IMG/VR virus record: IMGVR_UViG_2695420343_000002
DNA length: 46,924 nt
Strand: one strand, 5' to 3'
Source of the DNA: a virus
Taxonomy: Duplodnaviria; Heunggongvirae; Uroviricota; Caudoviricetes
Shown in pieces: positions 1 through 41,189 of this stretch (its first letter is position 1; each line of letters starts with the position of its first letter). The translations under genes and the position numbers were made by a program. The notes beneath the pieces were generated by a model that saw nothing but the letters and a program-made list of their open reading frames with translations, was not told the origin of the DNA and did not search any database.

Positions 1-431
1 TGTTCTCTTCGATTTGCTCACGCTCAGCTTGGTCAATAACTCCATCAGCAGTGCCTTGCGTAAGTACTGGGAATGCTTGCCAATCCATTCTATTGACTCC
101 ATCAGCCGCTGATAATGTCCCATTGTCAATGTCATCAATGACCACCAGCGGCACAAACACCCATTACTACGACGCTATTGCATCTGTTACATGCCTGTAC
201 CACTGGCATCCTGTAAAACCATGGCCCACTCAAGTGGAAAAATTTGATCCCCACCGCTACGCAGTCTGTTATGCAATTGATCTTTTGCTGGGGTGATATC
301 ATCAGATTTATACAAACCAAGAATTTCTGCTGCTTCCTCATAGCCATGAGGTAAATCAGCAATCGTTCTTCGTATTGCTGCCACCAGCCATGCTGTTGTT
401 TATCAACTTTCCATTCAGGTTCTTTACCCAC
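1..431 (-). pseudogene. CII-like/YdaT-family early regulator, truncated at window start and frame-broken copy of 39568-40152
   Basis: Same DNA as 39715-40152 with several single-base length differences; track ORF 135-431 keeps only the first 12 residues ([12 protein letters not shown]) in the same frame. Confidence 0.45.
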
Positions 432-458
432 GGTTAATTCCTCATTTCTGTGGTGTTT

Positions 459-654
459 TTATGCCGCAGCACTGTTAGTCTTTTGATATAAAGACACGTC
501 AACTTTCAGTTTCCCGTTAGTAATTTTTCTAACTGGTACGCTCGGCCTTCAGGAATAATCTCAGGCCACTCTGAAACAGACGGATGCTTAATACCTAGGC
601 TTCGGCGGTTTTACAAACTCCGCCGAAATAATTAATCACGTCGGATTTCCGCAT
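459..654 (-). pseudogene. Cro-like (YdaS-family HTH) gene, frame-broken copy of 40180-40377
   Basis: No intact ORF here; two 1-bp length differences versus copy B (taatttttct vs taattttttct, cctaggc vs cctagggc). Confidence 0.4.
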
Positions 655-687
655 TTCTGTCTCCCGTTAAATTACGTTAAGCAGAAA

Positions 688-703
688 TGTAGGATATCCA
701 ACA
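688..703. promoter_or_regulatory. Operator-like 16-bp site TGTAGGATATCCAACA (copy of 40411-40426)
   Basis: Near-palindromic site between divergent cro-like and cI genes; same motif recurs downstream of cI. Confidence 0.45.
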
Positions 704-749
704 TACCAATGTCAAGAATCCTACATGGGCATGTGGTAGGATTGCCTAC

Positions 750-1400
750 ATGATGAACATGAGTGATCGTATTCGCCAAAGGCGAAAAGAACTGAACCTG
801 ACACAACAAGCACTGGCTGATTTGACTGGTGTGAACCGTGTCACGGTTACTGGATGGGAAAAGGACGACTACCAACCAAATGGAGCCAACCTTCAAGCCC
901 TAGCCAACGCACTTAAATGCGATCCTCTGTGGCTTGTTAGCGGAAAAGCTCGCCTGAACCAAAGATAAATCTAAAACCTGAAATATTCGCAGTTAAAAAA
1001 GTCCCCCTCATCTCGTGGTTCAGGCGGTTCATGGACAATGACGGAGCCTGGTGTCAGGAAAGAAGATGCTGAAGAGTGGGTTTATACTACCGCCCTTGTA
1101 TCAGAAATGGCATTTGCACTACGGGTCCGTGGTGATTCAATGACCAATCCCCTCGGCTCACCATCGATACCAGAAGGTTCTATCGTTATCGTAGAGCCAG
1201 ATATTATTGATACAGAGTGTATTAACGGAAAAATCGTTGTTGCCCATATCAATGGTGGGCAAGAAGCGACACTCAAAAAATTTGTTGAGGACTGGCCGAA
1301 CAGGTATCTCGTCCCACTAAATCCTAACTATAAAACTATTGAATGCGGTGAGAACTGCAGAATAGTTGGTCTTGTCAAACAAGTAATAATGGATTTTTGA
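750..1400 (+). pseudogene. CI-type prophage repressor (HTH + S24 peptidase), frame-broken copy of 40473-41126
   Basis: Track splits it into 750-968 and 1038-1400; copy B is one 217-aa ORF with the same residues. Confidence 0.55.
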
Positions 1401-1424
1401 CACATCTTCCTCACTATCGCAAAA

Positions 1425-1446
1425 CCGGGGTATCCCCGGTTTTTTT
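1425..1446 (+). terminator. Rho-independent terminator after cI (copy of 41151-41172)
   Basis: Hairpin CCGGGGTATCCCCGG followed by T7 run, 25 bp after the cI stop. Confidence 0.7.
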
Positions 1447-1463
1447 ATGAGCCTATCTTTTTA

Positions 1464-1514
1464 TGTAGGATAACCAACATAAACTCTTGACACTCACATG
1501 TTGGATATCCTACA
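1464..1514. promoter_or_regulatory. Inverted pair of operator-like sites flanking a TTGACA hexamer (copy of 41190-41240)
   Basis: TGTAGGATAACCAACA and TGTTGGATATCCTACA in inverted orientation, 18 bp apart. Confidence 0.45.
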
Positions 1515-1633
1515 TTTGTTTTTAGAGTTGTGGTGAATGCGCAGGCTGATGCGCGAAAGACATTGCAGCTATTGCGGAAAAGAGCTGTTCGGCGGGGCCA
1601 TTAAACGCCCGTATCTGGAGGTTAAAGAACAAA

Positions 1634-1909
1634 ATGAAAGTCCAGATTTTAAACAATAGTGGTGAAGTCGTTTGGTCATACGACATAGCCGCTCCTGTAG
1701 ATCAGAGCGGCGATAGCTGGACCAATGGGAAACATCAGATTATGGCTGGAGTTGTATTCTCTTTACGCCGTGCTTTGGAACAGGCTGAAGTATTTCCATC
1801 AGACCCTGAATGGAAATGGCCTTTTTCTATTTGTCCAAATTCGGAGAGCACATTTCAGAAAATTGGTCAGAAAGTCGCACTCGAAGAGCATCAGCCAACT
1901 GTTTCCTGA
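1634..1909 (+). CDS. Hypothetical protein downstream of cI (copy of 41360-41635)
   Basis: GGAGG 8 nt upstream of ATG; 91-aa ORF; no recognisable motif. Confidence 0.5.
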   Translation: MKVQILNNSGEVVWSYDIAAPVDQSGDSWTNGKHQIMAGVVFSLRRALEQAEVFPSDPEWKWPFSICPNSESTFQKIGQKVALEEHQPTVS

Positions 1910-2072
1910 TTTTTTCAGGTAACTCGTCGGCATCGCAGAAACAACAACGCTCGATCATGTTGAAAGCCGATTCGTAGAACTGTTTCTGCTGAGTGTCGCT
2001 GAGACAGGAAAAGAGCGACGTTACGATGATTTTATTAATTGCATTATCAAGTTCTTTTTCATCAAAAGTCAT
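1827..2072 (-). CDS. Hypothetical protein, convergent with and overlapping the previous ORF (copy of 41553-41798)
   Basis: AAGGA 7 nt upstream of ATG; 81-aa ORF; 83-nt 3' overlap with 1634-1909 leaves one of the two in doubt. Confidence 0.45.
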   Translation of the reverse strand: MTFDEKELDNAINKIIVTSLFSCLSDTQQKQFYESAFNMIERCCFCDADELPEKIRKQLADALRVRLSDQFSEMCSPNLDK

Positions 2073-2506
2073 TTGATTTTCCTTTTATGTATACGGGCTT
2101 AAAAGGATACCACCGAGCCTGAAGTGGTGAAAAGACAGGCACATAACAGCTAAGTATTTTCAACCAGAGAGAATCCTTAGCGTTGTGGTGAATGCGGCTC
2201 AGCGCACGCGGTTAAGGTTGAGGCTGACAGTCGACCTTCTGTGGATACCCACCCGCCTGGTGTGCAACCTTCGCCAGGCACCGGAGGCACCCGGCACCAC
2301 AACTTTATGCTGTGTGTAGTCCTCGCGGTACCAGTTTGTACACTTGCTTCCGGCTGGTACCGCTCTTTTACAAAACAGAGAAGAGCATCACCGGACGACG
2401 GGCTCATAACCCAATCCATCCGGGCGGCTGCCACCGCAGGTGTTCTTCTCTGTTTTGTGGAGAAACCAACCGACCTTGCAGGGTCGATATGATGAGGAGC
2501 AGCAAA

Positions 2507-2868
2507 ATGGCTAGCGAACGCAGTACTGATGTGCAGGCATTTATCGGGAGCTGGACGGCGGCGTATTTGAAACCAAAATCGGCGCAGTTCTCAGTGAAGT
2601 CGCTTCCGGTGTGATGAACACGAAAACCAAAGGGAAGGTCTCACTCAACCTGGAAATCGAACCATTTGATGAGAACCGTGTGAAAATCAAACACAAACTC
2701 TCATATATTCGCCCGACTAACCGCGGGAAAATTTCCGAAGAAGACACCACCGAAACGCCGATGTATGTCAATCGCGGTGGTCGCCTGACTATTCTGCAGG
2801 AAGACCAGGGACAATTACTGACTCTTGCCGGTGAACCTGACGGAAAACTCCGCGCAGCAGGTCATTAA
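2507..2868 (+). pseudogene. YfdP-like early protein, frame-broken copy of 42236-42598
   Basis: Track gives 2312-2614 and 2611-2868 in different frames; copy B has one ORF; difference is atcgggag vs atcggggag. Confidence 0.45.
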
Positions 2869-2933
2869 TATCGTTTTTAATAAACTGATTATTTATCTCA
2901 TCACTGAATATTTTTATATAGTGAGGACTTATT

Positions 2934-3758
2934 ATGTCTCAGAACTTAGACGCAACCGCAATTAATCAAATCCATGCCCTTATTTCTGCTCAGGGTGTTA
3001 ATGAAATTATCAGTAAGATTGGTGCCGATGCTGTGGCATTGCCTGAGAATTTCCGCATTCATGATCTGGAAAAATTTAATTTAAATCGCTTCCGTTTCCG
3101 TGGTGCGCTTTCCACTGCCAGCATCGATGACTTTACCCGTTATTCTAAAGATCTTGCAGATGAAGGCACCCGCTGCTTTATCGATGCTGATAATATGCGT
3201 GCCGTCAGTGTGCTTAACCTGGGTACTATTGATGAACCAGGTCACGCAGATAACACCGCCACACTCAAACTGAAAAAGACAGCACCGTTCTCTGCTCTGT
3301 TGTCTGTTAACGGCGAGCGTAACTCCCAGAAATCACTGGCAGAATGGATTGAAGACTGGGCCGACTACCTTGTGGGCTTTGATGCTAATGGTGACGCCAT
3401 TCAGGCAACAAAAGCGGCTGCGGCAATCCGTAAAATCACGATTGAAGCAAACCAGACCGCTGATTTTGAAGATAATGACTTCAGCGGCAAACGCTCCCTG
3501 ATGGAATCTGTCGAAGCGAAGACCAAAGACATTATGCCAGTGGCATTTGAATTTAAATGCGTTCCGTTTGAAGGTCTGAAAGAACGTCCGTTTAAATTAC
3601 GCCTCAGCATTATCACTGGCGATCGTCCTGTACTGGTTCTGCGCATTATTCAGCTGGAAGCAGTGCAGGAAGATATGGCTAACGAATTTCGTGATCTGCT
3701 TGTTGAGAAATTCAAAGACAGCAAAGTAGAAACCTTTATTGGTACTTTCACCGCCTGA
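2934..3758 (+). CDS. YfdQ-like phage early protein (274 aa)
   Basis: Intact 274-aa ORF; length and position after a YfdP-like gene match the KplE1 yfdPQRS block as I recall it. Confidence 0.75.
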
Positions 3759-3885
3759 TTTCATTACTGCAAATGCCCCTGCGGGGGCATTTATGGAAAC
3801 GTAATTAACTCAATAATCACCGGATGGTGAGGGCTTCCTTTTACCCAAACTCAGCGCGGTGCAGCGCATATACGTGGAGAACAAA

Positions 3886-4422
3886 ATGTCATTTATTAAA
3901 ACTTTTTCCGGGAAGCATTTTTATTATGACAGGATAAATAAAGACGACATCGATATTAACGATATCGCGGTTTCTCTTTCAAATATCTGTCGCTTTGCCG
4001 GTCATCTTTCGCACTTCTACAGCGTCGCCCAACATGCGGTTCTTTGCAGCCAGCTGGTGCCGCAGGAATTTGCTTTTGAAGCGTTAATGCATGATGCAAC
4101 AGAAGCGTATTGCCAGGACATTCCCGCACCACTGAAACGCCTTCTTCCTGACTATAAACAAATGGAAGAAAAAATAGACTCCGTAATCCGTGAGAAATAC
4201 GGATTACCCCCAGTTATGAGTACGCCCGTGAAATATGCCGATCTCATCATGCTGGCAACCGAACGCCGCGATCTCGGGCTTGATGATGGCTCTTTCTGGC
4301 CTGTACTGGAAGGTATCCCGGCAACAGAGATGTTCAACGTGATTCCACTGGCACCGGGCCATGCCTACGGGATGTTTATGGAACGCTTTAACGAGTTATC
4401 GGAGTTACGCAAATGCGCATGA
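3886..4422 (+). CDS. HD-domain phosphohydrolase (YfdR-like)
   Basis: H..H and HD motifs (SVAQHAV, ALMHDATEAY); ATG at 3886 has GGAGA 6 nt upstream; track start 3859 is a GTG. Confidence 0.75.
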   Translation: MSFIKTFSGKHFYYDRINKDDIDINDIAVSLSNICRFAGHLSHFYSVAQHAVLCSQLVPQEFAFEALMHDATEAYCQDIPAPLKRLLPDYKQMEEKIDSVIREKYGLPPVMSTPVKYADLIMLATERRDLGLDDGSFWPVLEGIPATEMFNVIPLAPGHAYGMFMERFNELSELRKCA

Positions 4423-4775
4423 ATGTTTTCGAAATGGAAGGGTTTCTTCGTGGGAGATGTGTACCGCGAGATCTGAAAGTAAATGAAACAGATGCTGAAT
4501 ACCTGGTGCGTAAATTCGATGCGCTTGAAGCTAAATGTGCAGCACAGGAAAACAAAGTAATACCAGTGTCAACTGAACTGCCACCAGCAAATGAAAGTGT
4601 TTTGTTATTCGATGCTAACGGAGAAGGCTGGCTAATTGGCTGGCGTTCTCTCTGGTACACCTGGGGACAAAAAGAAACCGGAGAATGGCAGTGGACATTT
4701 CAGGTCGGGGACCTTGAAAACGTCAATATCACTCACTGGGCAGTAATGCCAAAAGCACCGGAGGCTGGAGCATAA
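4413..4775 (+). CDS. DUF551-like protein (YfdS-like)
   Basis: 120 aa; C-terminal W-rich region ending NITHWAVMPKAPE resembles the DUF551 signature. Confidence 0.65.
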   Translation: MRMNVFEMEGFLRGRCVPRDLKVNETDAEYLVRKFDALEAKCAAQENKVIPVSTELPPANESVLLFDANGEGWLIGWRSLWYTWGQKETGEWQWTFQVGDLENVNITHWAVMPKAPEAGA

Positions 4776-5353
4776 TGACCACTTTTACTGACAAAGAACT
4801 GATTAAAGAAATTAAAGAGCGTATCAGCAGCCTTGACGTGCGAGACGATATTGAGCGCCGTGCTTATGAAATTGCACTGGCATCACTGGGAGCAGAACCT
4901 GTAAGCCAAACTTACAACTTGCCAGAATTAATCGAAGGCATGGAGGTTTCCATTGATGTAAGCACTTGTGATGCGGATTTAGGTAATCGCTATTTCGGTA
5001 CCGTCACCGAGGCGTTAGAACTTGATACTGCCAAGAATGGTTACATCCTCCTGGTTCAGGACGCAGAGCCAAACTTCGATATAAATGGCAACTCTCCGGT
5101 AACTCCGGATGGTTGGGTCATGGTGCCGAAGAAACTAACCGCTGAGAACGGCGCTAAGGGTGTGCTATCCGGTGAATTTTCAGAAACTACGTTTATAAGC
5201 TGCCCGGAATGCTTTGGCGATGATGATTGCGATACCTGCGACGGGAGCGGACGTATTGAAATTAAAGTGCCAGTCACGTGGTCGACCATAAAATCTATCT
5301 GGGATAAAGGTATCGAGTATTTTGCAGCAAAACCATCACAAGAGGTGAAGTGA
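4775..5353 (+). CDS. Hypothetical protein with C-terminal zinc-finger (CPEC...CDTCDGSG)
   Basis: 192-aa ORF; start overlaps previous stop (ATGA); CxxC plus CxxCxGxG motif. Confidence 0.65.
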   Translation: MTTFTDKELIKEIKERISSLDVRDDIERRAYEIALASLGAEPVSQTYNLPELIEGMEVSIDVSTCDADLGNRYFGTVTEALELDTAKNGYILLVQDAEPNFDINGNSPVTPDGWVMVPKKLTAENGAKGVLSGEFSETTFISCPECFGDDDCDTCDGSGRIEIKVPVTWSTIKSIWDKGIEYFAAKPSQEVK

Positions 5354-5925
5354 TGAACAACTTAATGATCGACCTTGAGACGATGGGGAAAAATAAGGAT
5401 GCACCGATCGTTTCCATTGGCGCGGTGTTCTTTACCCCAGAAACCGGTGACATCGGACAAGAATTCTATGCGGTTGTCAGCCTGGACAGTGCTATGAAGC
5501 AAGGAGCTACACCTGACGGCGATACCATCCTGTGGTGGTTGAAACAGAGCCCTGAAGCACGAGCTGCAATCTGTATTGATGATACTTTATCGATCAGCGA
5601 TGCACTCTCTGAATTGAGTCATTTCATTAATCAGCATGCAGACAATATAAAATATTTAAAAGTCTGGGGTAACGGGGCCACCTTCGACAACGTAATTTTA
5701 CGTGGAGCTTACGAGCGAGCAGGACAAATCTGCCCGTGGGCGTACTGGAATGACCACGATGTACGCACGATCGTTACGCTTGGGCGTTCCATCGGATTCG
5801 ACCCCAAAATGGACATGCCTTTCGATGGCGAACGGCACAACGCCCTGGCTGATGCCCGTCATCAGGCAAAATATGTTTCCGCTATCTGGCAGAAATTAAT
5901 TCCTGCCACCAGCACAGAATTATGA
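5350..5925 (+). CDS. DEDDh-type 3'-5' exonuclease
   Basis: MIDLETMG (D-x-E) near the N-terminus and H-x4-D near the C-terminus (HNALADARHQ). Confidence 0.7.
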   Translation: MMNNLMIDLETMGKNKDAPIVSIGAVFFTPETGDIGQEFYAVVSLDSAMKQGATPDGDTILWWLKQSPEARAAICIDDTLSISDALSELSHFINQHADNIKYLKVWGNGATFDNVILRGAYERAGQICPWAYWNDHDVRTIVTLGRSIGFDPKMDMPFDGERHNALADARHQAKYVSAIWQKLIPATSTEL

Positions 5926-5961
5926 TTTTCCCGGGTGCAGCCGGTTTTGATGGAGAAAATT

Positions 5962-6243
5962 ATGAACACCTTGTTTTTACTGATGGCTGAATTCAATACC
6001 CCAAACATTGAACTCTCAGCAGTTAGCCAAAAGTACTTTGGTATGAGTCCAGCCACGGCAGAAGCAAAAGCAAACGCTTGTAAGTTGCCCGTTCCAACAT
6101 ATCGCATCGGCACATCACAAAAAGCAAAACGTTGCATCAATATTCAAGATCTTGCGGAATACATAGACAAAAGGCGAGAAGAAGGACGTATCGAGTGGGA
6201 ACAGGTCAGAACAGTCAAACAGAAGGACAAAGAACATCACTAA
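5962..6243 (+). CDS. Excisionase-like DNA-binding protein (TorI/PrtN-like)
   Basis: Small protein starting MNTLFLLMAEF; last gene before the int junction; GGAGA 7 nt upstream of ATG at 5962. Confidence 0.5.
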   Translation: MNTLFLLMAEFNTPNIELSAVSQKYFGMSPATAEAKANACKLPVPTYRIGTSQKAKRCINIQDLAEYIDKRREEGRIEWEQVRTVKQKDKEHH

Positions 6244-6273
6244 AGAAAAAACCCGCCTGAAGGCGGGTTTTCA
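6243..6273. terminator. Bidirectional rho-independent terminator
   Basis: ACCCGCC-TGAA-GGCGGGT hairpin flanked by an A-run and a T-run, between convergent genes. Confidence 0.7.
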
Positions 6274-6290
6274 AAAAGCACCAGCTATGA

Positions 6291-6464
6291 TCATGCTGCT
6301 TTGCGACGACGAAGCTTACCCTGCTGCTCTTTACCAGAGACAGTAGCGTGAGTGAACGCATTAGGAGCAGCCTTCATCAGAACTTCAACAGCAGCACCCA
6401 TACCTGCGAATGCTTTCATTGTGTCGAACTTAACCTGTGGCTTGGTTGCTTTTTGATCTTTCAT
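6291..6464 (-). CDS. Small basic protein, 57 aa, hypothetical (below track cutoff)
   Basis: Translated by hand: MKDQKATKPQVKFDTMKAFAGMGAAVEVLMKAAPNAFTHATVSGKEQQGKLRRRKAA; GGGAG 8 nt upstream of ATG. Confidence 0.5.
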   Translation of the reverse strand: MKDQKATKPQVKFDTMKAFAGMGAAVEVLMKAAPNAFTHATVSGKEQQGKLRRRKAA

Positions 6465-6535
6465 AGAAAACTCCCGAGACAGTAAAGGCGTCTCTAACCC
6501 TTTCTTTAAAGCTAGCTTGTTTCGCTAACTTATGC

Positions 6536-6556
6536 CAATCGATCATGTCGATTGGT
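6536..6556. promoter_or_regulatory. Palindrome CCAATCGA-N5-TCGATTGG upstream of the small ORF
   Basis: Perfect 8-bp inverted arms, 5-bp spacer, about 70 bp upstream of the 6464 start codon. Confidence 0.4.
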
Positions 6557-6660
6557 GACATCGTTTCTTAGTAGTTTAAGCACAAAACGACTGCCATAGA
6601 TGTACCTTTAAGGTAATCTGGACGGGTATCCTACAATTTGTAGACCCTTCTCGTCTATAC

Positions 6661-7197
6661 CTACTGAGCAAATTTAAGAAAGATATCCTGCAGCTCATCA
6701 ATGACTGCCGACATCACATAACCGCACTGTTCCATGCGGAAACCAAAAGACTCGTAATACTGCACCAGTTCTGGTACTGGCTCTACAATGTGGACAACTT
6801 TACATTCAACAGCTTTACAAAATATAAAAGCACTCATAAGAGTGAGTAAAACCATGCGCCCTTTCAATGGGTGAGATTCATCTTCTCTAGAAAACCTTTC
6901 GATCATATGGATACGAAAGATGTTTTCTTCAACCCCATAAACACAAATTGCTGCTCCTGATGGTATTCCCTGAACCCGACCTTGCTGAACAAGTTTTATG
7001 CAGAACTCATACTTTTCTCTGGAGTTGCCATAGGTACTTAACGCATAGTCCCATTCAAGCTCACCATAGCCACCACACAGAATCTTGTAATCATCATCAC
7101 TGAGCGGACCAACAGCAAGAGGTAAGCCGACATGATCAATAATCAACTGGATATTGTTACGTACTGATTGACCTATCTCGTCCAGGGTAAGCATCAT
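6661..7197 (-). CDS. Putative GNAT-fold N-acetyltransferase (accessory gene)
   Basis: 178-aa ORF; C-terminal YYESFGF resembles the GNAT motif; looks AT-rich by eye; no search run. Confidence 0.5.
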   Translation of the reverse strand: MMLTLDEIGQSVRNNIQLIIDHVGLPLAVGPLSDDDYKILCGGYGELEWDYALSTYGNSREKYEFCIKLVQQGRVQGIPSGAAICVYGVEENIFRIHMIERFSREDESHPLKGRMVLLTLMSAFIFCKAVECKVVHIVEPVPELVQYYESFGFRMEQCGYVMSAVIDELQDIFLKFAQ

Positions 7198-7533
7198 GGC
7201 CTCTCAAGCGGAACACTAAAAGTCGCATTATATCTCATTCTTAAGCCGCGTATGGATTACACCTTGAAATGAAAACGCCGGGTTCCCAATAGGCTCCCAC
7301 AGAGTGTATAACTGCTTGTTTTTCAACAACGGTACATCCTATCAAGCATAGGAGCAATGCTAAACCGAGAATTCCAGTAAACACCAGTTTTTTCAGGCAT
7401 CACGCTGGTTTGATTAATTTTTTGTGTTTCATGATTATCGTGCATTTTTGAACATTTCAGGCTATTTTTCTCGCGTTAGGTTCCCGCACAGGTTCCCACG
7501 TTTTATGGGAACCCGAAATAACGAGGTCGTGTA
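7198..7533. other. Noncoding region upstream of int with GGTTCCC repeats; candidate attP or integrase arm-site region
   Basis: GGTTCCC appears three times in direct orientation plus once inverted (GGGAACC) within 60 bp of the int start. Confidence 0.3.
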
Positions 7534-8631
7534 ATGGCGTACTATAACATAGAGAAACGACTAAAATCCGATGGCACACCACGCTATCGCTGTAATGTGA
7601 TTATCAAAGAAAAAGGTGTTATCACTTACAGGGAAAGCAAAACATTCCCTAAACATGCTCATGCCAAAACATGGGGCACACAGAAAGTGATGGAATTAGA
7701 TCTATATGGCATTCCATCATCAAATGCAGTTGACGGACTTACAGTCCGTGACTTACTACACAAATATTTAAATGACCCAAATGCCGGAGGTAAAGCAGGC
7801 CGTACTAAAAGATATGTGCTGGAACTGCTTATGGATAGTGACATCTCCGCGATCAAACTATCTGAACTGACAGAAAATGACGTAATTGAACATTGCAGGC
7901 TAAGAAACAACGCTGGTGCAGGTCCTGCAACAGTCAGCCACGATGTTAGTTATCTTGGCAGTGTTCTGGATGCGGCCAAACCTGTATACGGAATTAATTA
8001 CACATCAAACCCGGCGAAAAGCGCTCGCCCATATCTACTTAAACTTGGTTTGATTGGTAAATCAAACCGTCGTAATCGTAGACCAGCATCTGATGAACTG
8101 GACATGCTCATTGCAGGCCTTCAACAACGATCTACTCATAAATGCTCAAAAATTCCGTTCGTTGATATCCTCAAATTTTCTGTATGGTCCTGTATGCGAA
8201 TCGGAGAAGTATGCCGGTTACGATGGGAAGATCTCGACCAGGAACAAAAATCTATACTCGTAAGAGACAGGAAAGATCCACGCAAAAAGGAAGGTAACCA
8301 CATGAAAGTAGCCTTGCTTGGGGAAGCCTGGGATATCGTCCAACGACAGCCCCAAAAATCGGAATTCATTTTTCCATATAACAGCACTTCTGTTACTGCG
8401 GGATTTCAGAGAGTAAGAAGCAAATTAGGTATTAAGGATCTGCGATACCATGATTTGCGTAGAGAAGGGGCAAGTCGCTTATTTGAGGCTGGTTTTAGTA
8501 TTGAGGAAGTCGCCCAAGTTACAGGGCATCGTTCATTAAACGTGCTATGGCAGGTATATACCGAACTGTATCCGAAATCTTTACATAATCGTTTTGAAGA
8601 GCTCCAAAGGAGCAGAAATAAGACCTCTTGA
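7534..8631 (+). CDS. int: Tyrosine-type phage integrase
   Basis: 365 aa; RYHDLRREGAS box and GHRS...VLWQVYTELY tyrosine region; ACGAGG upstream of ATG. Confidence 0.9.
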   Translation: MAYYNIEKRLKSDGTPRYRCNVIIKEKGVITYRESKTFPKHAHAKTWGTQKVMELDLYGIPSSNAVDGLTVRDLLHKYLNDPNAGGKAGRTKRYVLELLMDSDISAIKLSELTENDVIEHCRLRNNAGAGPATVSHDVSYLGSVLDAAKPVYGINYTSNPAKSARPYLLKLGLIGKSNRRNRRPASDELDMLIAGLQQRSTHKCSKIPFVDILKFSVWSCMRIGEVCRLRWEDLDQEQKSILVRDRKDPRKKEGNHMKVALLGEAWDIVQRQPQKSEFIFPYNSTSVTAGFQRVRSKLGIKDLRYHDLRREGASRLFEAGFSIEEVAQVTGHRSLNVLWQVYTELYPKSLHNRFEELQRSRNKTS

Positions 8632-8692: not shown

Positions 8693-8941
8693 ATGCGTAT
8701 TGAAATCTGCATAGCCAAAGAAAAAATGACTAAAATGCCAACCGGTGCTGTGGATGCGTTAAAGGAAGAATTAACCCGACGCATCAGTAAGCGTTATGAC
8801 GATGTTGAGGTGTTAGTAAAAGCCACCAGCAATGATGGCCTTTCTGTTACACGCACCGCAGATAAGGATTCTGCAAAAACTTTTGTTCAGGAGACTCTGA
8901 AAGATACCTGGGAATCTGCTGACGAGTGGTTTGTTCACTAA
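8693..8941 (+). CDS. dinI: DinI-family protein
   Basis: 82 aa; [11 protein letters not shown]...[11 protein letters not shown] aligns by eye with E. coli DinI along its length; GGAGGG RBS. Confidence 0.85.
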
Positions 8942-9194
8942 TAAACACGTAAAATCTGTAACGGCTGGAAATCATTCAATACTCGCACTATCGAAAGTTC
9001 ACCAGCCAACCGCAGCGCGTTCTTGCATACGACGTGGCTGCGGTCTCAACTCCGTCCCCCACCAATCATGATTGGGCAGTACCAGTACAGCACTAGTAAA
9101 AACTGGAAATAAGCAGTCTCAGCAAAATACCGGCCAGACGGTGAGAAGACAAAAAAGATACGCAAAGTAGCCGCGGCCCTTAGTGACATGAAAT

Positions 9195-9214
9195 CCCGCT
9201 ATACGGGCTTTTTT
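9195..9214 (+). terminator. Weak terminator-like hairpin plus T-run
   Basis: CCCG-CTATA-CGGG then C TTTTTT; only a 4-bp stem. Confidence 0.3.
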
Positions 9215-9289
9215 GTATCTGCACACGATTGATTATTAGGTCCGTATAGCTAATAGTGGTCTTAACCTACATATAGAATCAGAGACTTT

Positions 9290-9985
9290 ATGAAAAAGGA
9301 AATACTCAAGGCTCTTTGCCCTACATGCGGTGGGTTACGTAACTGCACTGTGCATGGGAAGCTAACCACTAGCTGGGAGGATTCCCAATATCCAGTTTAT
9401 GGGTACCATTACCATCACCTACTCCAATGCAATGGCTGTGATACTGTCTTCTATCACCACAACGAACACTTCAGTGAGCATACTACCCACGAATATCGTG
9501 ATGGTGAATTTGTAGAAACGCCTATAGATATGATCACTACCTATCCTGCCGCTGAAACATTTCAAGCTCCGATATGGTTATCCAAGCTTGAATCAGTTGA
9601 TCGTCAGCTCTTTCAAATATTTAATGAAATGTATTCTTCATATACTTCTGACCATTTCATTCTTTCGTCCATCGGTTTACGGACGATTTTTGATCGAACT
9701 GCTGAACTGTTACAAATTCACCCCGGTTTGCCGCTTGGTGAAAAAGTTGAAAAATTAAAACAAGATGGAGTCATAGGCGACACTGAGGCATGCGTTATAT
9801 CTTCAGTAATTGATGCAGGAAACGCCGCCGCACATCGCAGTTGGAGCCCGAATAAAAGTGAGTTCGAACAAATGCTAGAAGCTATAGAAAGTTTTGTCCA
9901 AAGAACTATCTTGGGCAAAAAATCACTTGAACATATAACCAAACAACTCCCACCTCGGGTTACAAGACCTAAAAATAGTGCATAA
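9290..9985 (+). CDS. Zinc-ribbon plus DUF4145-like domain protein (candidate accessory or defence gene)
   Basis: N-terminal CPTCGG...C..H...CNGC; C-terminal GLRTIFDRTAELL...LGEKVEKLKQDGVI...IDAGNAAAHRS fits my recollection of DUF4145; AT-rich by eye. Confidence 0.55.
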   Translation: MKKEILKALCPTCGGLRNCTVHGKLTTSWEDSQYPVYGYHYHHLLQCNGCDTVFYHHNEHFSEHTTHEYRDGEFVETPIDMITTYPAAETFQAPIWLSKLESVDRQLFQIFNEMYSSYTSDHFILSSIGLRTIFDRTAELLQIHPGLPLGEKVEKLKQDGVIGDTEACVISSVIDAGNAAAHRSWSPNKSEFEQMLEAIESFVQRTILGKKSLEHITKQLPPRVTRPKNSA

Positions 9986-10011
9986 TCCGCGATCATCAAT
10001 GTGGCGTAAGG

Positions 10012-10604
10012 CTATGGTTTACTTGCTACAGGGAATTTTTTATACACCGTTGAAATACCCAGATCATAAATCAGTGCGACTTGCTGCTGATATATTCCCG
10101 ATTCAATCAACCTGCCAGCCTGCCCCCATTGTTCTACTGTCAGCTTTGGCTTTCGCCCACCGTTCCTCCCTTCTTGTCGTGCTGCGGCAAAGCCGCCCTA
10201 GTACGTTCGACAATAAACTCTCGCTCCATTTCAGCCAGGGCACCCATCACATGAAAGAAAAAGCGCCCCATTGGTGTGCTGGTATCAATAGCATCCGTCA
10301 GGCTGCGAAAATTAACGCCACGTTCGCGCAACTCTTCCACCAGCACGACAAGATGCCGCATACTGCGCCCCAGTCGGTCCAGTTTCCAGACCACCAGCGT
10401 GTCACCTGCCGATAATGTCCTGAGCAGCTTTTTCAGTCCTGGTCTGTCGGACTTTGTACCGCTTATCTTGTCTTCAAAAATCAGCTCACATCCTGCACAG
10501 TTCAACGCATTACGTTGTAGATCGGTGTTCTGGTCATTTGTTGATACGCGAACATAGCCAATAAGCATGATTGCTCCTCCTGACAAAAACAGGAACGATG
10601 CCAT
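10012..10604 (-). CDS. Pin/Gin/Hin-family DNA invertase, frame-broken
   Basis: N-terminal MLIGYVRVSTNDQNTDLQRNAL catalytic domain (track 10140-10604); the HTH tail GRNGGRKPKLTVEQW...STVYKKFP is in another frame down to 10012; shift lies in a G-run near 10186-10199. Confidence 0.7.
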
Positions 10605-10627
10605 TTGCTCGTTATTTCTGCATTTTC

Positions 10628-10647
10628 ATAAACCTTGGTTTGGGAGA
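10628..10647. repeat. Invertase crossover site (gix/hix-like), left
   Basis: ATAAACCTTGGTTTGGGAGAG; an 18-bp core AAACCTTGGTTTGGGAGA is repeated inverted at 12447-12466. Confidence 0.7.
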
Positions 10648-10993
10648 GGCGGCGAAAAGGGATGTGGGCACAGGAGATAATCAGATACCGGATATGGGAG
10701 CATTCGCTTCTGGTTCGGGATGGTTCAGGCTACCAGGTGGATATATTGTTCAGTTTGGCACTTTTGCAGGAAACACGACCCGCTTTATCAGTGGACACTT
10801 CCCTATACCATTCCCTAATCAGCCGATGGTTTCAGTCAGTGTTATGTCTGATGCCGTTCAGTCAGACCCGTCGATTCCTGCCCCGCAGGTTTTGTCTGTA
10901 AATTTTGAACATATCAGTAATTCAGCGTGGCGTGTGGCAACCAGTGATATCTCATATCAATACAGATTCAGTTATATTTCGATAGGACGGTAG
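10631..10993 (+). CDS. Alternative tail-fibre C-terminal variable segment (promoterless, expressed after inversion)
   Basis: Frame shares the NLGLGE residues encoded by the crossover site with the tail fibre at 12001-12747; track ORF 10571 starts with TTG. Confidence 0.55.
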   Translation, partial: NLGLGEAAKRDVGTGDNQIPDMGAFASGSGWFRLPGGYIVQFGTFAGNTTRFISGHFPIPFPNQPMVSVSVMSDAVQSDPSIPAPQVLSVNFEHISNSAWRVATSDISYQYRFSYISIGR

Positions 10994-10995
10994 AA

Positions 10996-11436
10996 ATGCA
11001 GAAATATATTTTCAGTGCCGATAAAAATGCGTTTTTCCCTGTGGAGCTTAAAATCGCTTATCAGGAATCCGGCGAATGGCCCGGTGATGGAATCGAAATT
11101 GACGACACTGTTGCCGCCGAATTTATGAAGGAAGCACCAGAAGGAAAATACAGAGGCGTCATCGACGGAATGCCTGCATGGATTGATATTCCACCGCCAA
11201 CTCATGAGGAACAAATTGCCGCAGCCGAACTGGAAAAGCAGCAATTGATTAATCAGGTCAACGAATACATAAACAGTAAGCAATGGCCTGGTAAAGCGGC
11301 GATTGGTCGCCTGAAAGGTGAGGAACTGGCGCAATATAATTTGTGGCTGGATTATCTGGACACACTGGAACTGGTCGATACTTCCGGTGCGCCAGATATT
11401 GAATGGCCTACGCCTCCGGCAGTTCAGGCCAGATGA
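10996..11436 (+). CDS. Tail fibre assembly protein (alternative copy)
   Basis: 146 aa; C-terminal TSGAPDIEWPTPP typical of tail-fibre assembly chaperones. Confidence 0.7.
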   Translation: MQKYIFSADKNAFFPVELKIAYQESGEWPGDGIEIDDTVAAEFMKEAPEGKYRGVIDGMPAWIDIPPPTHEEQIAAAELEKQQLINQVNEYINSKQWPGKAAIGRLKGEELAQYNLWLDYLDTLELVDTSGAPDIEWPTPPAVQAR

Positions 11437-12001
11437 CATCCGGCGCGGTGCTGGTATCTGTTACCGTCATCGCGTCAATGTAATCCAGCACGGCGTTAAG
11501 TCGGGTTGTTTCTGCCTGCGTCAGCTTCCGTCCGGCCTGTAATTTCAGTTGAATCAGACTGATGGAAGCCATTGCAGCATCAATCAGCGACTGGCGCTGT
11601 GCTTCTGCTGCGTCTACTGCGGCACTATGCTGTGCCTCAGTATCTGTCACCCATTTCTCACCATCCCATTTATCGTATGGCGTTAACGGTGAAAGCGTGA
11701 CATAACCGTCTTTGATGGCACCGATATAATCCACTGTAACAGCTGCGCCATTTTCGATTGAGTAAACAGTCTCATTGCGGTGGTCTTCTTCATGGCTCCA
11801 TCCCTTACCCGTAAATACTGCCACTTTCCCCGGAATGTATTCGCCCGGGTCAATACCAGTGGAACAGGCGGGCATACTTACGCCAGTATTAATATATTCA
11901 TCAGACCAGCCCGTATACTCAGATGTTTCAGCATCATAATAAAAACAACGCATATCGCCCGGCACTGTAGCCAGCCCATTTTCATCAAAAACAGGTTTCA
12001 T
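11408..12001 (-). CDS. Tail fibre assembly protein (currently expressed orientation)
   Basis: 197 aa; C-terminal TSTAPDVIWPELPEA; immediately downstream of the tail fibre gene. Confidence 0.7.
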   Translation of the reverse strand: MKPVFDENGLATVPGDMRCFYYDAETSEYTGWSDEYINTGVSMPACSTGIDPGEYIPGKVAVFTGKGWSHEEDHRNETVYSIENGAAVTVDYIGAIKDGYVTLSPLTPYDKWDGEKWVTDTEAQHSAAVDAAEAQRQSLIDAAMASISLIQLKLQAGRKLTQAETTRLNAVLDYIDAMTVTDTSTAPDVIWPELPEA

Positions 12002-12747
12002 TATTTAGCCCTCACCAGAAAGTTAAATGCAATATTTCGCGGTCTGACAGCAACAAAATTCACACCATCACCCACAGAGTTACTGGTGAAATTAAATCGT
12101 GAAAATCCTGGCTGATTTCCGGCGATGCCATCATGAAAGTTAATTGCGTGTCCCGCACCTCCGCCTATATTCCCGGCAAACTGAGAAAAGTTTGTAGCTT
12201 CCTGCCAGCTTAATAATTCGCGACCGCCATCGGCACCTCGCCCGTCATCCCAGATACGAATGAAATCACCGCGGGCTTCAGGTAATACCAGTGAAGGAAA
12301 CACTTTCGCCAGCACAGGGTAATCAGAGGCAGAAAATTTCGCCCCGTTGAACTTCAAAAACACCATACTGGACCAGCTGTCGATTACAGTATTTGGCATT
12401 GCAGCGGACGGCCAGAAGAACGGAACGCCAATAGCTGGAGCACCTTCTCCCAAACCAAGGTTTTCGAGAGCCGTTTTCACCGTGCCATCCGATTTGATAT
12501 CACCAAACGGATTCTTGCGGCTTAACAGCAGAGCACGAAGCGCGGTAAGCAACTGGTCGTGCCGCGCCTTCTCCAGACTGGCACCGGAGGCTTCCACCAC
12601 GCTGCAAAGCTCCTCCTGCAACATGTCAAAGTAGTCATCATCCAGATCGGTGGCAGGCGTGCCGGTCTGGGGGTTACCACGGGTAAAACCGTTCTTACCC
12701 GCGCCGAACTTATCCTTCTGCGCGGTTTTCGTGTCTATACGATGCAT
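12001..12747 (-). CDS. Tail fibre protein (constant N-terminus outside, variable C-terminus inside the invertible segment)
   Basis: 248 aa; crossover site lies in-frame at codons for ALENLGLGE. Confidence 0.7.
12447..12466. repeat. Invertase crossover site (gix/hix-like), right
   Basis: CTCCCAAACCAAGGTTTTCG is the inverted partner of 10628-10647. Confidence 0.7.
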
Positions 12748-12750
12748 GGA

Positions 12751-13335
12751 TTACTCCGGATATTTAAAAATTACGTAGGTATGCGACGGGCAGAGTTTGT
12801 TAAGCACACACTCGACAACGGTGTCACCCCAGATACGCAGTGCGGAATCACAGGGATCGCCACATGTCATCCAGGTGGTGTTGGTGGCTGCTGGCATGTT
12901 GACCTGCCAGTAATACCGCCATTCCGGCGCATTCACCGCGTCAGTACAGGCCGATGAGCAGGTGAACGTGCTTTTGTCGTATCGCGTGATGGTGGCATCT
13001 GGTCTGCCCAGGGCAGCAAGCTGTGCAAGATAAAAATCCTCGTTGATGCCGCCCGCCAGGTTAACCTTCGCATCCAGCCGTTGCTGACGCTGGCGAAGGG
13101 TCTGTGTCCCTGCGGGAATACATTCATCCGGCAGACCGCACAGACGCTCCCAGCGGTTTATCAGTTCAGTGGTGGTGCGCGGATCCAGCTCCCGCATCAG
13201 GGCATCCGCACGCTGATGAACGCGGGTTAATGACGGTGCCGCACCGGCAATCGACGGATCGCTGGCTGACCACGCCGGACCGGGGGGCAACAGTGCCGAC
13301 AACAGACGGATGTAATCATCGTTTGTCACGTCCAT
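12751..13335 (-). CDS. Mu gp48 / YmfQ-like tail protein (DUF2313-like)
   Basis: 194 aa, same length and position as e14 YmfQ upstream of the tail fibre. Confidence 0.6.
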
Positions 13336-14384
13336 GAAATCGTCCCCAGTACCGCCAGTTCATTTTTTGCAATGGAGATATTGTCTGCCGGTGCAAGCAA
13401 CTGATGGCTGTATTCCCCGTTCGCACCGGAAATCGCCTCACTGATACGCGATACCTTCAGTTCTCCCTGCGGATAACCATCACGCAGCAGGAACGAACGC
13501 AACTCCGCGGTGATGGCAGCCCGTATTTCCGGTGTGTCCGGCGTCACACGGATATGAAAATCCACCGTATGCGCCACCGGCCTGAATACATACAAATCAG
13601 AGCCTGCCACCGGGGCCAGTGGCTCAATGTGTTGTCTTGCCGCCGTTTCCGTTGATTCTTCCGGAATGGGGTTAATCAGGTCACTGCCGGCAATCATCAC
13701 ACCGACAGTCCCCGTTCCCATCCAGTGGCGGTATGTCCATGCGCGGGTAATGCCGGGAACTTCTTTAGCCCAGACGACATAGTCCCCGTCAGCCCCGCCC
13801 TGAGGCGTCCAGTAATACCGCTCAATGACGCGGGCGCGCCACGTTTCCAGCTCTTCAGTATCAAATCCACCTGTCAGTGTATCTGCCACGCCGGAAGACG
13901 GCAGACCATTCACCGGCGTGACCAGGATTAATGACGTACCGTCGTCAGCGTTACCGACCGCGCCTGCACTTGAGCAGGCGATCGGCACGCGCAGGACACC
14001 ACCGGAGCTGGTTGCATCGGCAGTTGCCGTGTACTGCACCAGGTCATCGCGCTGAATAACACTCCCGGCGGTCACCTTCAGGCCATCGCTGACACCTTCC
14101 CAGCGCATATACCCGCTGGCAGCCGTGGCCCCCTTGCGCGGACACCGTTTCATCGCAGCATGTCGCGCCAGCCAGGACTCATCGCACAGGTCAGGCAGCA
14201 TATTCATTGCCAGATAATCGATGTACCCGTAAACCGTATGCAGCGCCGCCGCATACACCTTTGCCCGCACGTCTTCATCCATGCGCCGGAGCGTGTCGCT
14301 GACGTCCAGCCTGGCGAATAAATCGTTACGGAGCATACTGATATTTTCTGCCAGCGTCGGGCGCTGAAATTCACTGTCCGCCAT
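13326..14384 (-). CDS. Baseplate J-like protein (Mu gp47-like)
   Basis: 352 aa; position between gp46-like and gp48-like genes. Confidence 0.65.
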
Positions 14385-39571: not shown

Positions 39572-40152
39572 GCGTTAGTTTCTCCACAACCAGAAGCAAT
39601 CGACGCCACGACGCCCGGAGCTGCACACTCGCGGGCGTTACTCTTTTCCGGCGCACAAAAAACACGAAATAACAGTGTTAAATGCTCCTGCCACTTCGCC
39701 ATTACTTGGTAGCTGTTCTCTTCGATTTGCTCACGCTCAGCTTGGTCAATAACTCCATCAGCAGTTGCCTTGCGTAAGTACTGGGAATGCTTGCCAATCC
39801 ATTCTATTGACTCCATCAGCCGCTGATTAATGTCACCATTGTCAATGTCATCAATGACCACCAGCGGCACAAACACCCCATTACTACGACGGGCTATTGC
39901 ATCTGTTACATGCCTGGTACCACTGGCATCCTGTAAAACCATGGCCCACTCAAGTGGAAAAATTTGATCCCCACCGCTACGCAGTCTGTTATGCAATTGA
40001 TCTTTTGCTGGGGTGATATCATCAGATTTATACAAACCAAGAATTTCTGCTGCTTCCTCATAGCCATGAGGTAAATCAGCAATCGTTCTTCGTATTGCTG
40101 CCACCAGCCATGCTGGTTGTTTATCAACTTTCCATTCAGGTTCTTTACCCAC
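39568..40152 (-). CDS. CII-like / YdaT-family early regulatory protein (putative)
   Basis: 194 aa directly downstream of the cro-like gene in the rightward early operon; call is by position and family recollection. Confidence 0.45.
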
Positions 40153-40179
40153 GGTTAATTCCTCATTTCTGTGGTGTTT

Positions 40180-40377
40180 TTATGCCGCAGCACTGTTAGT
40201 CTTTTGATATAAAGACACGTCAACTTTCAGTTTCCCGTTAGTAATTTTTTCTAACTGGTACGCTCGGCCTTCAGGAATAATCTCAGGCCACTCTGAAACA
40301 GACGGATGCTTAATACCTAGGGCTTCGGCGGTTTTACAAACTCCGCCGAAATAATTAATCACGTCGGATTTCCGCAT
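40180..40377 (-). CDS. Cro-like HTH protein (YdaS family)
   Basis: 65 aa; GGVCKTAEALGIKHPSVSEW pattern; divergent from cI across an operator-rich spacer. Confidence 0.75.
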   Translation of the reverse strand: MRKSDVINYFGGVCKTAEALGIKHPSVSEWPEIIPEGRAYQLEKITNGKLKVDVSLYQKTNSAAA

Positions 40378-40404
40378 TTCTGTCTCCCGTTAAATTACGT
40401 TAAG

Positions 40405-40475
40405 CAGAAATGTAGGATATCCAACATACCAATGTCAAGAATCCTACATGGGCATGTGGTAGGATTGCCTACATG
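40405..40475. promoter_or_regulatory. Operator cluster between the cro-like gene and cI
   Basis: TGTAGGATATCCAACA at 40411-40426; inverted AATCCTACA/TGTGGTAGGATT at 40439-40465; GTAGGATTGCCTACA abutting the cI start. Confidence 0.5.
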
Positions 40476-41126: not shown

Positions 41127-41150
41127 CACATCTTCCTCACTATCGCAAAA

Positions 41151-41172
41151 CCGGGGTATCCCCGGTTTTTTT
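41151..41172 (+). terminator. Rho-independent terminator after cI
   Basis: CCGGGGTATCCCCGG hairpin followed by T7. Confidence 0.75.
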
Positions 41173-41189
41173 ATGAGCCTATCTTTTTA

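Follow-up and report, generated by a model that had tools for sequence, protein, structure and literature searches.

The DNA analysed here, a 46,924-nucleotide stretch of a tailed virus held in IMG/VR (the window), raises the question of whether an invertible tail-fibre segment still constitutes a switch when the invertase gene beside it is broken. The original prediction placed an invertible segment of the Mu G, P1 C or e14 P type at 10012-12747, and singled out the frame-broken state of the adjacent invertase as its remarkable aspect. We regard it as near certain that the region is an invertible fibre segment of the e14/Pin type and that the frameshift in its invertase is genuine. Our main reading, to which we assign a probability of roughly 0.7, is that of a P-type host-range switch in an SfV/e14-like temperate E. 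coli myophage that integrates at dusA, locked in cis and flippable in trans.

The sequence AAACCTTGGTTTGGGAGA is present in exactly two copies in the window, at 10630-10647 on the plus strand and at 12446-12463 on the minus strand, forming a perfect 18-nt inverted repeat with a spacing of 1,798 nt between the arms. The identical 18-bp inverted sites originally proposed are hence real, with coordinates (10628-10647 and 12447-12466) that were off by 1-3 nt. None of 100 dinucleotide shuffles of the sequence contained two matches to the repeat with three or fewer mismatches, and at up to three mismatches the whole window contains these two matches only and no third recombination site. A Min- or shufflon-like system with multiple inversions was rejected on this ground. 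The repeat is part of two longer sites, which together delimit the segment:

10623-10648, reading on the minus strand CTCTCCCAAACC AA GGTTTATGAAAA: invertase-proximal 26-bp site, crossover dinucleotide at 10635-10636 (TT on the plus strand)
12445-12470, reading TTCTCCCAAACC AA GGTTTTCGAGAG: distal 26-bp site, inside the fibre gene, crossover dinucleotide at 12457-12458 (AA)
10637-12456: invertible segment, 1,820 bp between the crossover dinucleotides

Both 26-bp sites are inverted relative to each other and consist of an AA core with a 12-bp half-site on either side. The inner half-sites (CTCTCCCAAACC versus TTCTCCCAAACC) have 11 of 12 positions in common, and the outer half-sites start with GGTTT. 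The anticipated distance of about 1.8 kb is recovered whether measured between arms or between crossovers. Comparison with published sites, suggested at the outset as a check, returned the pix sites of e14: the distal site is identical to the stfP-side site of K-12 e14, and the proximal one deviates from the pinE-side site (TTCTCCCAAACC AA CGTTTATGAAAA) at two positions, the first base and a core-adjacent base. The gix sites of Mu, TTCCTGTAAACC GA GGTTTTGGATAA, instead have a GA core, and their outer half-sites differ from those of the window.

The content of the segment and its immediate surroundings is consistent with a fibre switch:

12751-13335, minus strand: YmfQ / Mu gp48-type baseplate protein, directly upstream of the fibre gene (Phage_Mu_Gp48, E 1.3e-26)
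12457-12747, minus strand: constant tail-fibre N-terminus, codons 1-97, common to both fibre forms
12001-12456, minus strand: variable fibre C-terminus in the expressed position, StfE-like, residues 98-248
11408-12001, minus strand: tail-fibre assembly chaperone in the expressed position, TfaE-like, 197 aa (Caudo_TAP, E 2.6e-26)
10637-10993, plus strand: silent alternative fibre C-terminus, 118 codons (Gp53-like_C, E 5e-9)
10996-11436, plus strand: silent assembly chaperone, TfaP-like, 146 aa (Caudo_TAP, E 7.8e-34)

As foreseen, the segment contains two convergent cassettes, each comprising a fibre C-terminus and its own chaperone, and both chaperones match the same Pfam family; the 3' ends of the two chaperone genes overlap by 29 nt. 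Within the fibre gene, the crossover is located in codon L97, and the site is read in frame at A93-L-E-N-L-G-L-G-E101 of the 248-aa fibre, precisely the ALENLGLGE stretch pointed out before. The silent cassette also reads NLGLGE, in the same frame. With the crossover in codon L97, an in-frame fibre results in either orientation. Indeed, inverting the segment in silico yielded an uninterrupted fibre of 215 aa, compared to 248 aa in the present orientation, in agreement with the proposed swap of the receptor-binding end. Lacking its own start, the silent C-terminus depends on inversion for expression and then forms residues 98-215 of the 215-aa fibre. The layout is that of e14, where a constant N-terminus downstream of ymfQ fuses in frame with either C-terminus, each accompanied by its own Tfa. 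For the expressed fibre tip, a Pfam match to the phage tail Collar family scored 16.3 bits, below the cut-off of 24 bits, and was therefore left out of the evidence.

A close relative displays the flipped state. In E. coli T309.Ta3, the invertase of which is intact, the 1,820-bp segment is found again at 98.4% identity but points the other way, and its inner flanks are swapped exactly at the AA core, i.e. at the predicted crossover. Congruently, the window inverted in silico aligns with T309.Ta3 in one piece, over 100% of the length and at 97.7% identity, and the gene equivalent to the 215-aa form is the expressed fibre of T309.Ta3. Inversion thus occurs in this lineage, the segment being found in both orientations at the lineage level.

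Among characterized systems, the P segment of e14 in K-12 (ymfQ-stfP-tfaP-tfaE-stfE-pinE) has the same gene order as the window, including convergent chaperone genes with a 29-nt overlap, and nearly the same size, as 1,797 bp is reported for e14 (PMC12529663) versus the 1,798 nt between the arms here. YmfQ is 97.9% identical between the two, the TfaE-like chaperone 63% and the TfaP-like chaperone 55%, whereas the fibre tips are only 41-58% identical (41% to the StfE fragment, and 58% for the fused 215-aa form to full-length StfP). The StfE/TfaE-like cassette occupies the expressed position in the window, the reverse of the K-12 e14 reference. Furthermore, e14 has decayed to a non-inducible remnant at icd and has an intact pinE, while the window element is a complete 39.7-kb phage at dusA with a frameshifted invertase. 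The G segment of Mu is organized by the same Sc-Sv-U / U'-Sv' logic, its invertase gene lying directly beside the segment, and Gin is 76% identical to the window invertase; unlike in the window, however, the segment spans about 3 kb, the fibre is much longer and Gin is intact. The C segment of P1 shares with the window the Fis-dependent invertase family and the use of a fibre host-range switch, and the cin product of the P1-like phage RCS47 is about 79% identical to the window invertase, but the segment measures 4.2 kb and the phage backbone is unrelated. Aggregated, the e14 pix sites, the e14 P gene order and proteins, the Gin-like invertase and the flipped relative bear out the arrangement that was proposed.

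The backbone itself has other relatives. Escherichia phage vB_EcoM-689R6 and Shigella phages SfII, SfI, SfIV and SfV share the head and contractile-tail genes at about 97% over some 17 kb. For the Sf phages, the homology starts at 12444, that is at the distal site, and runs through the tail genes, with no invertase annotated under the match in their records. These phages integrate elsewhere and carry O-antigen modification genes. In vB_EcoM-689R6, a DNA invertase that is 87% identical is located at the genome end.

The machinery that would drive inversion is found immediately outside the segment:

10012-10568, minus strand: Pin-family serine DNA invertase pseudogene, 557 nt versus 558 nt in intact relatives
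10193-10194, minus strand: 1-nt deletion in codon G126, CC on the plus strand versus CCC in intact relatives
10484-10546, minus strand: candidate Fis-dependent recombinational enhancer (sis), from motif scan and alignment
10532-10546, minus strand: Fis-like 15-bp motif TATCAACAAATGACC
10484-10498, minus strand: Fis-like 15-bp motif GTGCAGGATGTGAGC

The invertase is broken as originally stated: three-frame translation and alignment with two intact relatives reveal one missing base, seen on the coding strand as GCGGGC to GCGGC when aligned at the DNA level with E. coli elppa4 and UTAK-14. The frame of the catalytic domain runs from 10568 down to a premature stop at 10140-10142 and yields a 142-aa product, of which residues 1-125 are in the original frame and the last 17 are out of frame. 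The helix-turn-helix domain is located in another frame, at 10015-10197, followed by a stop codon at 10012-10014. Accordingly, the Pfam matches are distributed over two frames (Resolvase, E 5.2e-49; HTH_7, E 2.2e-11), and with an intact E. coli invertase as tblastn query the gene is split in the same manner, which was the case for no other gene tested. Rather than one uninterrupted functional frame, the window thus contains a catalytic domain parted from its DNA-binding domain by a 1-nt deletion. As judged from the sequence, the deletion costs the protein the end of helix E together with the linker and the entire helix-turn-helix DNA-binding domain, and with this loss of domains the truncated invertase is probably inactive. 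With the invertase a pseudogene, the phage would be unable to flip the segment itself and would produce the 248-aa StfE-like fibre only. When repaired, the invertase shows 84.8% identity with PinE and 76.2% with Gin, and aligns end to end with Gin in PDB 3UJ3 (E 1e-90) as well as with 4M6F. The catalytic motif YVRVS (YVRVSTNDQ) is present, and the Q..RL residues, specific for invertases within the DNA-binding domain (PMC3798978), are still readable in the shifted frame.

The two Fis-like motifs, in the 5' part of the invertase gene, have their centres 48 bp apart, at distances of about 96 and 144 bp to the proximal crossover. A degenerate Fis motif alone is weak evidence, as approximately three matches are expected in 360 nt. 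The pair is nevertheless positioned at the same codons (+29 and +77 from the start) in Mu gin and K-12 pinE, and the motifs are identical to those of Mu gin at 15/15 and 14/15 positions. In the Hin and Gin enhancers, the two Fis sites have a spacing of 48 bp.

We propose the following mechanism. The constant 97-codon N-terminus of the fibre would be read into the segment across the 26-bp pix site. With the aid of Fis, bound to the enhancer that the invertase gene contains, a serine invertase of the Din family would carry out strand exchange at the central AA of the two inverted pix sites and flip the 1,820 bp, replacing the StfE/TfaE-like cassette with the StfP/TfaP-like one. In the window phage, the cis elements and both cassettes are intact with the cognate invertase being a pseudogene, and flipping would hence take place only with a related invertase supplied in trans, from another prophage or from a host plasmid. 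For the window segment, both the Fis dependence and the flipping in trans are what we infer.

How plausible is flipping in trans? Invertases of the Din family (Gin, Cin, Pin, Hin) act on one another's sites. Many E. coli have several pin-like genes per genome, with three to four such places in the frameshift carriers CFS3292, MEI148-20EC and 20KM0223N. Moreover, the e14 homologue of the segment is inverted in trans by PinQ, encoded in prophage Qin, and inversions were detected in 33% of 562 E. coli genomes (PMC12529663). A broken cognate invertase alone does therefore not mean a permanently locked switch, considering that the cis elements are intact and that experiments showed the e14 segment to be flipped by the invertase of another prophage (PMC12529663). 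The work of Kirigo et al. (NAR 2025, PMC12529663) describes the very event proposed here, a pix-flanked fibre segment flipped by another prophage's invertase (PinQ/PinR); it concerns K-12 e14 and an anti-T2 phenotype.

A competing view is that the switch is a fossil, with no flipping since the invertase broke, and that the orientation differs among carriers only through recombination with other prophages. Carriers of the frameshift do show both orientations (carrier L008 versus L014, L011 versus L014, and L015 versus L025 and L018), yet the flipped pairs are only 92-95% identical within the segment, despite a nearly invariant 3' part of the invertase (0-1 nt). The 5' part of the gene is mosaic, differing by up to 34 nt among carriers, which places recombination breakpoints inside the invertase gene. 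With segments that differ by 5-8% and a mosaic invertase, the orientations of carriers could represent recombinational imports rather than flips in trans; since comparison does not separate import from in situ inversion, we dropped the carriers as proof of flipping in trans. In several carriers the segment has also decayed, with fibre genes cut short or IS26 inserted, as would suit a fossil. In the window phage, however, the pair of pix sites is intact, as are the enhancer-like motifs and both cassettes, and the cross-action of Din-family invertases, the PinQ precedent and the many E. coli with several pin-like genes likewise argue against a fossil, which we consider unlikely, if worth keeping in mind. 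A search of IMG/VR for the flipped proximal junction retrieved three contigs from other prophages, with an invertase about 92% identical and neither of the two invertase allele strings present; the unflipped proximal junction was found in IMG/VR in a single contig (L007), which is the same phage.

Locked in cis and flippable in trans thus remains our favoured reading, and the genomic context bears on what the fibres are for. E. coli prophages directly adjoining dusA have the same integrase as the window (7534-8631, 100% identity), and window positions 7342-7448 match both prophage ends, including the 5' part of dusA. A DusA-associated integrase family is known from dusA-integrating prophages (PMC4482086), and the window has the corresponding arrangement, a tyrosine integrase adjoining an att site that replaces the dusA 5' end. 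The head, tail, baseplate, lysis and packaging genes form a complete and intact set, and the sequenced form of the element was an excised or concatemeric genome with attP. In e14, inversion of the segment generates a chimeric StfE2 that blocks adsorption of T2 (PMC12529663), and as the fibre forms of the window are homologous to StfP and StfE, the cassettes could analogously defend the lysogen by blocking adsorption instead of acting as functional tail fibres. We find this very unlikely: the phage gene set is complete and intact, unlike that of cryptic e14, the genome was recovered in excised or concatemeric form with attP, and the fibre gene directly follows the baseplate genes, as in SfII, SfV and vB_EcoM-689R6. 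A role of the fibres in the virion is the simplest reading, with defence as a possible side-effect.

It is hardly credible that some full-length invertase is still made, for example through rare -1 ribosomal slippage at AGG GCG GCU, rendering the switch self-sufficient but slow. If the ribosome slipped by -1 directly behind the GCG codon, the sequence ...RAGFAAAR... would be regained precisely, every carrier examined has the 61-codon DNA-binding frame further downstream in an open and conserved form, and the deletion allele is common; however, a canonical slippery heptamer is absent at the site, as is a long homopolymer for transcriptional slippage, and a recent origin of the deletion explains the open downstream frame equally well, the carriers differing by 0-1 nt there. 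Finally, an assembly or sequencing error in a truly intact and active invertase was considered owing to homopolymer deletions at the window ends (the first 7.2 kb recur at the opposite end, the two copies aligning with 0 mismatches but 16 gap openings, each a deletion located at 52-2546 in copy 1 and several being GGG to GG as in the invertase), and is essentially refuted, because the copies are identical from 2547 onward, the 40+ other genes compared with an E. coli relative are all single-frame, and the same deletion turns up again in 9 independent contigs of IMG/VR, in about 20 complete E. coli genomes of RefSeq and on 890 contigs.

The deletion is real and widespread. The 36-mer spanning it has an exact match in the 9 IMG/VR contigs, and of 35 complete E. 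coli genomes that contain this invertase lineage, about 20 have the allele (17 exact 61-mer matches and 3 same-length matches). The exact 142-aa product is present on the 890 contigs, including older GenBank records such as E. coli KTE233, and PGAP labels the allele 'frameshifted' in independent assemblies from several countries. Linked substitutions accompany the deletion in other carriers, and in about 40% of the complete E. coli genomes, megablast finds one or more matches to the invertase gene. The 36-mer had no match in a genome-contig set holding one genome per species, an outcome expected from that sampling and not evidence against the allele. Thus, the part of the original prediction that considered the broken invertase notable stands only in half: the gene is truly broken, but this is not special to the window, being a common allele already annotated in E. 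coli. As the switch type is known and the same broken allele is common in public E. coli genomes, the finding is an ordinary one.

The share of the allele, over half of the invertase lineage in complete E. coli genomes together with the 890 contigs, raises the idea that it is favoured and not merely tolerated, which we judge quite doubtful. Control of the host-range switch could pass to resident prophage invertases (PinE, PinQ, PinR), or the 142-aa protein, consisting of the catalytic domain only, could interfere with such invertases. If true, either route would tie the phage to the network of inversions between prophages that was described in 2025 for e14.

Beyond correct annotation, the importance of the locus is small. 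The broken invertase is a true allele and not an error to correct. To our knowledge, the role of the e14 P segment in a virion has never been testable, e14 being defective, and for this reason a clean and complete e14/Pin host-range switch in a viable-looking phage could be useful. For host-range prediction of the window phage, the 248-aa fibre is the form to use, and the second form may still arise in lysogens with another Pin-type invertase. Where public records name this fibre 'integrase', the name is wrong.

The 18-nt sequence AAACCTTGGTTTGGGAGA is present in exactly two copies in the 46.9-kb window, at 10630-10647 (plus strand) and 12446-12463 (minus strand), and no dinucleotide-preserving shuffle contained two matches to it with three mismatches allowed. 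We wrote the two crossover sites in the 26-bp format customary for invertase sites, as confirmed by PMC3798978; they enclose a segment of 1,820 bp (10637-12456 between the crossover dinucleotides) in the following setting.

Features of the invertible segment and its surroundings
13326-14384, minus strand: baseplate J gene
12751-13335, minus strand: YmfQ / Mu gp48 gene
12001-12747, minus strand: tail-fibre gene, 248 aa
12445-12470: distal site, TTCTCCCAAACC AA GGTTTTCGAGAG
11408-12001, minus strand: Caudo_TAP chaperone of the expressed cassette
10996-11436, plus strand: second Caudo_TAP chaperone (silent cassette), converging on the minus-strand genes
10637-10993, plus strand: fibre C-terminus with Gp53-like_C domain (silent cassette), converging on the minus-strand genes
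10648 to 10623, minus-strand reading: proximal site, CTCTCCCAAACC AA GGTTTATGAAAA
10012-10568, minus strand: serine recombinase (invertase) gene, beyond the proximal site

In the expressed gene and the silent cassette alike, positions 2-3 of the CTT (Leu) codon of N-L-G-L-G-E form the central dinucleotide of the site, and inversion of 10637-12456 in silico replaced fibre residues 98-248 by 118 others, yielding an open gene of 215 aa. The frame match, the open gene and the gene layout thus bear out the anatomy of the original prediction, namely convergent sets of fibre end plus chaperone, an in-frame site and a swapped fibre end; its two identical 18-nt arms likewise stand, although their coordinates were off by 1-3 nt. 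The proposed comparison with published pix sites returned a distal site identical to the stfP-side site of e14, the cryptic prophage of E. coli K-12, and a proximal site with two differences from the pinE-side one, in the first base and in the base adjoining the core. Gene order is also common to the e14 P region (ymfQ, fibre, tfa, tfa in convergent arrangement with a 29-nt overlap, fibre end, invertase), and identities to the e14 proteins are 97.9% for YmfQ, 63% for the expressed chaperone (TfaE), 55% for the silent chaperone (TfaP) and 58% over the full length for the inverted 215-aa fibre form (StfP). Sites, order and identities agree with the predicted Pin/Gin-type switch of the e14 P kind. 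This kind of inversion system has stood in textbooks since the 1980s, and the region is a correct, tidy annotation of a known kind, not a discovery.

Two minor observations concern the cassettes. A perfect 13-nt inverted repeat, AAATGCAGAAATA (10613-10625 and 10994-11006), places a copy of the silent chaperone gene start just beyond the proximal site, in the stretch separating that site from the invertase start; an earlier cassette boundary may have left it there as a relic, or it may be chance, with about 0.2 such repeats expected in 5.5 kb. Moreover, NCBI/PGAP applies the name 'integrase' to the 248-aa fibre and to close relatives of it (WP_170078263.1, WP_058589838.1, Salmonella and Klebsiella entries), a propagated misannotation, because the protein is devoid of an integrase domain and its gene is placed after the baseplate genes.

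The resolvase catalytic domain (E 5e-49) and HTH_7 domain (E 2e-11) of the invertase lie in different frames. Aligned with two intact 558-nt genes of E. coli prophages, the gene lacks one base (coding-strand GCGGGC to GCGGC; on the plus strand CC at 10193-10194, CCC in relatives), and the break at codon 126 leaves residues 1-125 followed by 17 out-of-frame residues and a stop. Restoring the base gives a protein that aligns from end to end with the sequences of the Gin crystal structures 3UJ3 and 4M6F (E about 1e-90) and is 84.8% identical to e14 PinE and 76.2% to Mu Gin. The Q..RL residues of the DNA-binding domain, specific to Fis-dependent invertases (PMC3798978), are still readable in the shifted frame.

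The authenticity of this deletion needed care, because window 1-7194 recurs at 39714-46924 with 16 gap openings but 0 mismatches. Each opening is a deletion in the first copy (52-2546); most are in short homopolymers, and several are GGG to GG, as in the invertase. The copies no longer differ from 2547 onward, and in tblastn with 49 proteins of a related E. coli prophage every other matched gene past 2547 occupied a single frame, only the invertase being split. A 36-mer spanning the deletion matched exactly in 9 IMG/VR contigs, several with substitutions relative to the window and no gaps across more than 3 kb. Among the 35 complete E. coli genomes carrying this invertase lineage, a 61-mer around the deletion was exact in 17 and of the same length in 3 more, the other 15 having the extra base. 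PGAP calls the invertase 'frameshifted' in strains from Switzerland, Czechia, France, Germany, China and the USA, and in the protein collection 890 contigs encode exactly the 142-aa truncated product, among them GenBank entries, for instance E. coli KTE233. Thus, with clean interior genes and the allele recurring in the 9 contigs, 20 of the 35 genomes and these 890 contigs, the deletion is genuine; an assembly error is all but ruled out by the same clean genes and independent assemblies. The frame-broken invertase of the original prediction is thereby substantiated, but its special status is not, the allele being common and already annotated.

Carriers of the allele share a haplotype in which the deletion is linked to an F118 codon and, in the DNA-binding part, to a change of E to G (EQWGQAGRL). 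The 3' part of their gene is nearly invariant and the 5' part differs by 0-34 nt (window 10012-10568 against loci L007-L018 and L023-L028), which shows recombination breakpoints within the gene. Several carriers are further decayed, with an IS26 insertion adjoining the invertase gene and a truncated stfP.

Inverted in silico, 9990-12760 aligned in one piece over 100% of its length with the dusA prophage of E. coli T309.Ta3 (97.7% identity). The 1,820-bp segment there is reversed (98.4% identity), the 8-nt inner flanks of both sites are swapped exactly as expected from strand exchange at the AA core, and the prophage has an intact 558-nt invertase and the 215-aa fibre in the expressed position. 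Reversal, swapped flanks and intact invertase therefore show that inversion has happened in this lineage. Both orientations of related segments also occur among carriers of the broken gene (L008 vs L014; L011 vs L014; L015 vs L025 and L018). We rejected these pairs as proof of flipping after the frameshift, since the opposite-orientation segments are 5-8% different and the invertase gene is mosaic; recombinational import explains them equally well.

The phage alone would be incapable of inverting the segment, and the StfE-like 248-aa fibre would be the sole one made. The recombinational enhancer of such systems is known to lie in the 5' part of the invertase gene, and 48 bp is the spacing rule for Fis sites in Hin/Gin systems. 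This part of the gene holds two Fis-consensus 15-mers (10532-10546 and 10484-10498), whose centres are 48 bp apart, at distances of 96 and 144 bp from the proximal crossover. Both motifs recur at matching codon positions in K-12 pinE and in Mu gin (15/15 and 14/15 bases identical in the latter). That such systems use a two-Fis-site enhancer is confirmed by PMC3798978. Since the two sites and both cassettes are intact, as is the enhancer-like element, the segment would still be a substrate for a related invertase in trans. Gin, Cin, Pin and Hin can replace one another. For the e14 P segment, inversion has been shown not only with PinE but also with PinQ, which a different prophage encodes (PMC12529663). 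About 40% of complete E. coli genomes have one or more close pin homologues, and several carriers have three or four. Interchangeability, the PinQ precedent and common homologues make flipping in trans plausible, and we assign a probability of roughly 70% to a switch locked in cis and flippable in trans. That the segment never flips any more sits poorly with the intact substrate and the common homologues; we regard it as unlikely. Residual self-activity of the broken invertase, the product of which stops short of the end of helix E and has neither the linker nor any of the DNA-binding domain, is highly improbable.

Judging from the mismatch-free repeat of the first 7.2 kb, the window is evidently a single phage genome, about 39.73 kb long, whose sequence runs on beyond its own start and has a poorly polished end. 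The first-copy deletions, of a type that long reads commonly produce near contig ends, have truncated yfdP there (2548-2865; intact at 42236-42595 in the second copy); gene calls in 1-2546 are not to be trusted. E. coli prophages beside dusA have an integrase 100% identical to the one here (7534-8631). Window 7342-7448 matches both prophage ends, and a dusA-like att core of about 107 bp links the right end to the left with host DNA absent; this interval is therefore attP, and the DNA is an excised circle, concatemer or tandem array. IMG/VR contig 2695420343_000006 is a second record of this phage, and its orientation agrees.

In the head and contractile-tail genes, identity to Shigella phages SfII, SfI, SfIV and SfV and Escherichia phage vB_EcoM-689R6 is about 97%. 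For the four serotype-converting Shigella phages this homology starts at 12444, exactly the inner edge of the distal site, and unlike the window they have no invertase under the match; the conserved ALENLGLGE box therefore also marks the edge of a module in the exchange of fibre tips between phages lacking one there. Between integrase and invertase lie two further genes.

Genes between integrase and invertase
8693-8941: DinI-like gene
9290-9985: DUF4145 protein, N-terminal Cys-rich part

In other carriers the same slot (8693-9985) is occupied by an hsdR-like gene, a Clp-type protease or an SDH-family proteinase, and it looks like a variable accessory slot, possibly one for defence.
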